DNA from: Escherichia phage Zumzum
Sequence record: PP925847.1
Reading direction: 5' to 3' (one strand)
Length of the DNA: 44,738 nt
The notes beneath the pieces are model-generated. The model was not told where the DNA came from. It worked only from the letters and a program-made list of their open reading frames with translations, and did no database searches. Shown one piece after another: positions 34,025 to 34,196 of this stretch; the first letter of the stretch is position 1; every line of letters starts with the position of its first letter. Made by a program: the position numbers and the translations under genes.

Positions 34025-34196
34025 ATGCGTATTAAAGCCAGCGAAGTAAAAGTCGGAATGCAAGTATGGTCCAAGCTACTGGGGGGAATATTTCACAGTT
34101 GCCGAGATTCGCAACAACGGCGAAGAGATCGCCCTGTCAGACGGCATCTTCTCCATGATCGGCAGCGCTGACGCCGTAGTGAGGATAAAGCAATGA
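34025..34196 (+). CDS. small gene split by a G6 homopolymer (34081-34086); a single-base change would give a 56-aa protein coupled to the polymerase start
   Basis: Frame 2: MRIKASEVKVGMQVWSKLLG to the G-run; frame 0: EYFTVAEIRNNGEEIALSDGIFSMIGSADAVVRIKQ ending in TGA overlapping the polymerase ATG. Confidence 0.4.

Follow-up and report, generated by a model that had tools for sequence, protein, structure and literature searches.

A very probably recent and non-programmed single-G insertion splits a conserved small gene upstream of the DNA polymerase gene in the record of Escherichia phage Zumzum

The stretch of DNA analysed here in full (Escherichia phage Zumzum, PP925847.1; 44,738 nt, hereafter the window) is, judged by its sequence, a complete, circularly permuted Dhillonvirus genome, that is, one of the HK578-like siphophages of E. 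coli. It can be aligned with phages jat and Maverick over its whole length, and the closest whole genome, that of phage Over9000, is only ~94% identical. Exact look-ups of the polymerase and of the SSB (the latter taken from a GTG start, which may not be the true one) gave no match. The 1.6 kb around the site considered below match 155 phage records at 80-99% identity. This coliphage shares 91-96% identity with 'Campylobacter phage A144' and 'Acinetobacter phage NJ01', whose host labels therefore look doubtful (records MG065648.1, OQ221563.1 and KM896878.1, the last being our L023, were examined). Away from the site, two copies of a 175-190-bp non-coding repeat (10224-10397 and 27109-27302), which are also found in jat and Maverick, adjoin the tape-measure gene in one case and the primase-helicase gene in the other. 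Each copy carries a G6 and starts with TTCAGTCTCAGACGAGGGGGGCC, and TGTCCCGC motifs recur inside both; the copies could serve as iterons, as an origin or in regulation. The tail-fibre gene (42828-44322, minus strand) matches jat_40 over the first 139 residues only (94%), while the rest has been replaced, with 35% identity over the last 120 aa, a pattern which looks like the swap of a receptor-binding module.

The site lies between a gene for an Enc34-type single-stranded DNA-binding protein (SSB) and a family-A DNA polymerase gene (Table 1). The jat_25 protein aligns over its full length to 33184-33963 (99.6% identity), relatives annotate this upstream gene as DUF2815 or ssDNA-binding protein, and in remote relatives the gene found at this position is matched by PF10991. 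The C-terminal tail of the SSB (33700-33966) consists of alternating acidic and basic repeat units (…DDDDEDDKPRKSKKSKRRDDDDDEEDEKPRKRRKPRDDEDEDDDEDEAPRKRRRR) and is not simply acidic, and the number of units differs between relatives through in-frame indels, as between L018 and phage Ioannina (L019, OQ589852.1). Compared with LM40P1, the Ioannina record (at about 569 and 957) also shows a 1-nt deletion in the SSB GGC repeat (GGTGGCGGCG-CGGTG), which shifts the frame of the acidic C-terminal tail, so that the annotated 284-aa protein runs into the small gene; either a sequencing error or a genuine mutation could account for this deletion. Downstream of the site, jat_27 matches the polymerase over its full length in one frame (99.1% identity), and PF00476 matches the syntenic polymerase gene in remote relatives. 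Approximately 190 bp (36485-36675) separate the polymerase gene from a VRR-NUC / Holliday-junction resolvase gene and are missing from jat and Maverick, where the two genes abut, and an ORF at 36444-36680 (78 aa as listed, probably with an internal ATG start) is a candidate extra small gene.

Table 1. Coordinates of the genes and sequence features around the split small gene in the window.
Feature	Position	Strand	Remarks
Gene for Enc34-type (DUF2815 / gp2.5-like) ssDNA-binding protein with acidic/basic repeat tail	33184..33966	+	
Terminator-like hairpin (AAGCCCGC-UUAAU-GCGGGCUU) followed by a U run, between SSB gene and small gene	33985..34009	+	
AGGA Shine-Dalgarno-like motif, 9 nt upstream of the small gene ATG	34012..34015	+	Invariant in the alignment; putative function
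Small gene, 5' part, codons 1-20 (MRIKASEVKVGMQVWSKLLG)	34025..34084	+	Frame 0; equals residues 1-20 of intact homologues
ORF as it stands, 48 aa (20 native and 28 Arg-rich out-of-frame residues)	34025..34171	+	
G6 tract, one G more than in every relative (GGGGG/GGGCG)	34081..34086	+	Alignment, tract table
Small gene, 3' part, codons 21-56 and stop (EYFTVAEIRNNGEEIALSDGIFSMIGSADAVVRIKQ)	34086..34196	+	+1 frame
GAGGA Shine-Dalgarno motif inside the small gene, 7 nt upstream of the polymerase ATG	34181..34185	+	Invariant in the alignment
Family-A DNA polymerase gene, 763 aa, intact	34193..36484	+	

The hairpin between the SSB gene and the small gene has a predicted energy of -18.5 kcal/mol (z -3.8, with 0/200 shuffled sequences as stable) and is invariant in five genomes, some records carrying a 'terminator' annotation here; a simple terminator scan did not list it, though folding supports it. 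An out-of-frame ATG (34018-34020) lies 7 nt upstream of the small gene start, and the A run between the two ATGs comprises five As in the window, six in phage mckay (L002) and fewer in the P0001 variant, a change in this run giving an in-frame MK- extension (58-aa forms) in some relatives. In the record of YD-2008.s the small gene has been left out and a 'putative DNA polymerase 1' is annotated across it on the opposite strand.

An earlier note, made from the letters of the window, had described here a small gene which opens with an ATG, passes through six Gs, continues as Arg-rich junk and resumes in the adjacent frame up to the polymerase start. Each of these elements could be read in the sequence. 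From the ATG at 34025-34027, frame 0 encodes MRIKASEVKVGMQVWSKLLG and then, beyond the six Gs at 34081-34086, GIFHSCRDSQQRRRDRPVRRHLLHDRQR, 28 out-of-frame residues which end at a stop at 34169-34171. This tail is not conserved as coding sequence, its frame has additional stops in some relatives, and an exact look-up of the 48-aa product finds no gene on record. The +1 frame encodes ...GEYFTVAEIRNNGEEIALSDGIFSMIGSADAVVRIKQ and ends with a TGA (34194-34196) which overlaps the polymerase ATG (34193-34195) in an ATGA at 34193-34196. Codons 21-56, as they stand in the window, are identical to residues 21-56 in Shigella phage EP23 and 41 other records. With one G fewer, the junction codons CTG GGG GGA ATA would read CTG GGG GAA TAT and the two parts fuse, as the note had foreseen, into a single ORF of 56 codons which matches phrog_10102 end to end; the predicted junction peptides are LLGEYFTVAEIR for the 56-aa form and LLGGIFHSCR for the 48-aa form. 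A G6 is by itself ordinary, with four G6 and two C6 runs across the window.

The 56-aa protein obtained by removing one G (the repaired protein) belongs to a family already on record as phrog_10102, a conserved hypothetical gene. It aligns to this family over positions 1-56 of 56 (E 1.7e-42), and that both halves jointly match the whole length is far beyond chance. No Pfam domain matches it at E-values up to 10. The protein is identical to that of phage EP23, and a tblastn search with it showed that 154/154 matching phage records encode it contiguously in one frame, 42 of them at at least 99% identity; an uninterrupted ORF of ~56 codons is thus absent from the window's copy, while all of these relatives are uninterrupted. 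Records of relatives have an intact 171-nt CDS for 56 aa annotated at this locus, with the same ATGA overlap with the polymerase gene. Every member of the nine close clusters (~240 member sequences) is 56-58 aa long. The wider family, recruited by an exhaustive HMM search and a profile search, comprises 34 clusters, all of 40-69 aa and all unannotated, in which length changes are in-frame only. Three large repeat proteins from the exhaustive HMM search (P0013, P0014 and P0020) were dropped as spurious repeat matches.

A mean pN/pS of 0.19 over 13 unique DNA sequences and the location of 26/38 variable sites in third codon positions (LM40P1 excluded) indicate that the small gene is under purifying selection. 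The copy in LM40P1, with 64% protein identity, is intact at 56 aa. Phage Ioannina has lost 48 nt (16 codons) in frame and encodes 40 aa instead of 56, while P0029 is seven codons short. Because these two carry such large in-frame deletions, their sequences suggest that the gene is not strictly essential. In three remote members (L038, L039 and L041; ~40-50% identical) the gene lies directly upstream of a PF00476 polymerase gene and overlaps its start by 8-14 nt, and an SSB gene (PF10991) precedes it in L038 and L039, L041 ending at a contig edge. The overlap with the polymerase start is therefore kept even at this distance, in agreement with the earlier view that the ATGA marks a real coupled gene. 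The paper on the Enc34 SSB does not mention the small gene. Two named small proteins were considered as its identity: Ksap1 was ruled out, as it has 74 aa and is located elsewhere in the genome rather than between SSB and polymerase, and anti-Tmn is unlikely, being set apart by its described helical-rod structure (PMC11846954).

AlphaFold predicts an SH3-like beta-barrel with a pLDDT of 96 from an alignment of 34 sequences (a first model from nine near-identical sequences reached a pLDDT of 58 and was not used), and the model superposes on domain I of EF-P / eIF5A, which has the translation-protein SH3-like fold. The family thus represents previously unnamed small proteins with a predicted SH3-like beta-barrel fold, and it overlaps the start of the family-A polymerase gene across phages with a DUF2800 / DUF2815 / PolA / SNF2 replication module. 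This kept place at the polymerase start makes the small protein a candidate accessory factor of the polymerase or the replisome.

The extra G is found in the window alone. All relatives read at the DNA level have a tract of 5 nt (GGGGG or GGGCG), which is interrupted as GGGCG in 7/13 unique sequences. A 40-nt query in which every megablast seed spans the G6 matched 0/50,697 phage records, while its G5 version matched 63. A pattern tolerant of tract length was found in eight IMG/VR contigs and three metagenome contigs, each of which has a 5-nt tract, and a pattern specific for G6 was found neither in IMG/VR nor in 185,579 bacterial and archaeal genomes (GTDB). The split arrangement itself occurs in 0/154 phage records, 0/14 IMG/VR loci and 0/3 metagenome contigs. 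Within the 5-kb replication block (31402-36484) there is no 1-nt indel other than the G at 34081, and jat_26 is the only one of 58 jat genes that is split across frames in the window. The repaired copy shows no decay relative to its relatives, so that the event is either very recent or absent from the actual DNA.

Taken together, these data very strongly favour a private, very recent and non-programmed +1G homopolymer indel in a conserved gene. The codons CTG GGG GAA would have gained one G to become CTG GGG GGA A, in this genome alone, presumably through strand slippage on the G run, either during sequencing or consensus building or during phage replication. Of the readings put forward in the earlier note, which had proposed a comparison with relatives as a check, an indel or a sequencing error accordingly stands, given one G more than in every relative and an intact gene everywhere else, while a genuine slippage site, used for recoding or phase variation, does not, given that no relative is split and the tract is not conserved. 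For annotation, 34025-34196 should be given as one frameshifted gene, flagged as a possible error or pseudogene, rather than as two ORFs or a recoding site.

Evolved recoding and phase variation are unsupported and, even taken together, very improbable. In the former case the G6 would have evolved as a site of +1 ribosomal frameshifting or transcriptional slippage setting the levels of a 56-aa and a 48-aa product, for which we see only the slenderest chance. The geometry of the site would suit it: a P-site tRNA-Gly paired with GGG can shift to the overlapping GGG with perfect pairing, GGA, the 0-frame A-site codon here, is a low-usage glycine codon in E. coli, and a +1 shift would yield exactly the wild-type protein. 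Its arrangement is, however, seen in 0/154 relatives, the 0-frame tail shows the lack of conservation described above, and the glycine codon is GGG in some relatives and GGC in others, so that the slippery run is not conserved and the G run is best seen as a by-product of codon choice. Remote homologues have G, R, N, D or K at the aligned position. The G run is itself Shine-Dalgarno-like, and the RNA fold of 34060-34200 (z -0.52, 60/200 shuffled sequences as stable) offers no notable downstream structure. Six Gs are also short for slippage by RNA polymerase. A rare +1 slip at the G6 is possible from the codon geometry, and would then be incidental leakiness rather than an evolved signal.

Evolved phase variation, in which a hypermutable poly-G contingency tract would switch expression of the gene within the phage population, as in receptor-binding genes of Campylobacter phages, is least credible of all. 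Coding homopolymers change length at a raised rate, and a change from G6 to G5 would restore the gene, but the contingency tracts known so far are longer, and the tract itself is conserved in them. Here it measures just 5 nt in all the relatives read, is interrupted as GGGCG in about half of the unique sequences, and has no length variant among the 154 records besides the window.

Within the favoured reading of a private indel, sequence alone is unable to separate an error in the record from a true mutation. We give even odds to a base-calling, consensus or polishing error, in which case the true sequence of the phage is G5, with the 56-aa gene intact. Pyrosequencing, semiconductor and nanopore platforms classically leave homopolymer indels as their residual error, and deposited genomes commonly contain a single miscall of this sort. 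An error would agree with the repaired protein being 100% identical to that of many relatives, without a sign of pseudogene decay, and the 0/154 broken relatives and the pN/pS value set a low prior for a real knock-out. The SSB deletion of Ioannina, be it error or real, further shows that single-base anomalies occur in deposited Dhillonvirus records. Against an error, Illumina-grade consensus almost never miscalls a G5, no other gene in the window is frameshifted, and the assembly looks clean. The assembly does not show a pattern of multiple private homopolymer indels or frameshifts: the other homopolymer differences from jat and Maverick are common to relatives (T4 at 20351 in 8 records, A5 at 7483 in 36 and G6 at 10242 in Maverick) and are therefore real. 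The longest tracts (T9 and T7) have the same length as in jat or Maverick, and three other G6/C6 tracts in coding regions sit in intact genes, as judged from gap-free blastn alignments and intact ORFs.

The same clean assembly speaks for a real replication-slippage mutation, fixed in the sequenced stock and inactivating an accessory gene which, on the isolation host, the phage can do without or which is selected against there; we place this a little short of even odds. Large in-frame changes to the gene are tolerated in nature, as in Ioannina and P0029. Frameshifts in hypothetical and tail genes arise in passaged Dhillonvirus stocks (PMC11846954, Table 1), and host defence can favour phages that have lost a small protein specific to Dhillonvirus, the example being Ksap1 and KpAvs2 (PMC11564622); both observations count for a mutation. 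On the other hand, with 0/154 relatives frameshifted and clear purifying selection, natural knock-outs are evidently rare, and a costly knock-out should be unstable, as a G6 would revert readily. Since G5 revertants would arise so easily, the knock-out could last only on a propagation host where the gene is neutral or costly. There is a small chance, far below even odds, that the G6 is real and was selected, because a host defence system recognises the 56-aa protein, in the way that KpAvs2 recognises Ksap1, or because the protein imposes a cost on the isolation host; escape would then have come about through a reversible +1G slip, and leaky +1 ribosomal slippage at GGG-G would give traces of wild-type protein.

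If the G6 is real, the product would consist of 20 native residues and a basic tail of 28 residues. This 48-aa product would almost certainly not fold, because the modelled barrel needs residues 21-55. The +1 frame has no start codon able to express the C-terminal part, the sole ATG there giving 14 residues. Synthesis of the polymerase would be little affected, because its gene has its own GAGGA, from which it can probably initiate without coupling, and because ribosomes in frame 0 would stop only 21 nt upstream of its ATG. The polymerase should thus still be made whether the G6 is an error or a mutation, and a real G6 would make Zumzum a natural knock-out in which the idea of an accessory factor could be put to the test.

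Several known systems resemble the small gene or its G tract in part. EF-P / eIF5A domain I and other SH3-like small beta-barrels (KOW/Tudor) share 11-19% sequence identity with the small protein at Foldseek E-values of at least 0.07. With this identity and no Pfam match at the threshold given above, the protein falls outside the EF-P / eIF5A sequence family; it is a single 56-aa domain in a replication module, without domains II or III of EF-P, and the modelled likeness is one of fold only, with no common function implied. Ksap1 is likewise a small, genus-restricted Dhillonvirus protein, the loss of which is tolerated and selected under defence pressure, but it has 74 aa and is encoded between methyltransferase and phosphatase genes (PMC11564622).

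As regards the tract, the extra G in a coding GGG-G run recalls the +1 G-run frameshift alleles of the Salmonella his genes, which are suppressed by sufD, a tRNA-Gly with a four-base anticodon; reading GGGG as glycine restores the frame there. Those alleles are defined laboratory mutations with reads and genetics, whereas the extra G of the window is known from the record only. The hypermutable poly-G tracts known from Campylobacter phages and from bacterial contingency loci are likewise coding G runs whose length sets the frame. They are longer, vary in length between and within isolates and usually lie in surface or receptor genes, whereas the tract in the small gene has 5 nt in relatives, is often interrupted, is invariant in length and belongs to a replication-module gene. 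The programmed +1 frameshift of E. coli prfB (RF2) likewise involves P-site re-pairing and a slow 0-frame A-site codon. In prfB, however, the site, the in-frame stop and an upstream Shine-Dalgarno-like stimulator are conserved across bacteria, while the arrangement in the small gene occurs in no relative and has no in-frame stop at the shift site. The closest counterparts are the intact orthologues in related phages, including HK578 gp39 (YP_007112646.1), jat_26 (QHR76406.1), Maverick_023, Bas18_0042, the EP23 protein and gp40 of Sodalis phage SO-1. These share the locus, the start and the ATGA overlap and have 88-100% protein identity once one G is removed from the window; they carry GGGGG or GGGCG in an uninterrupted 171-nt ORF, where the window has GGGGGG and a split one.
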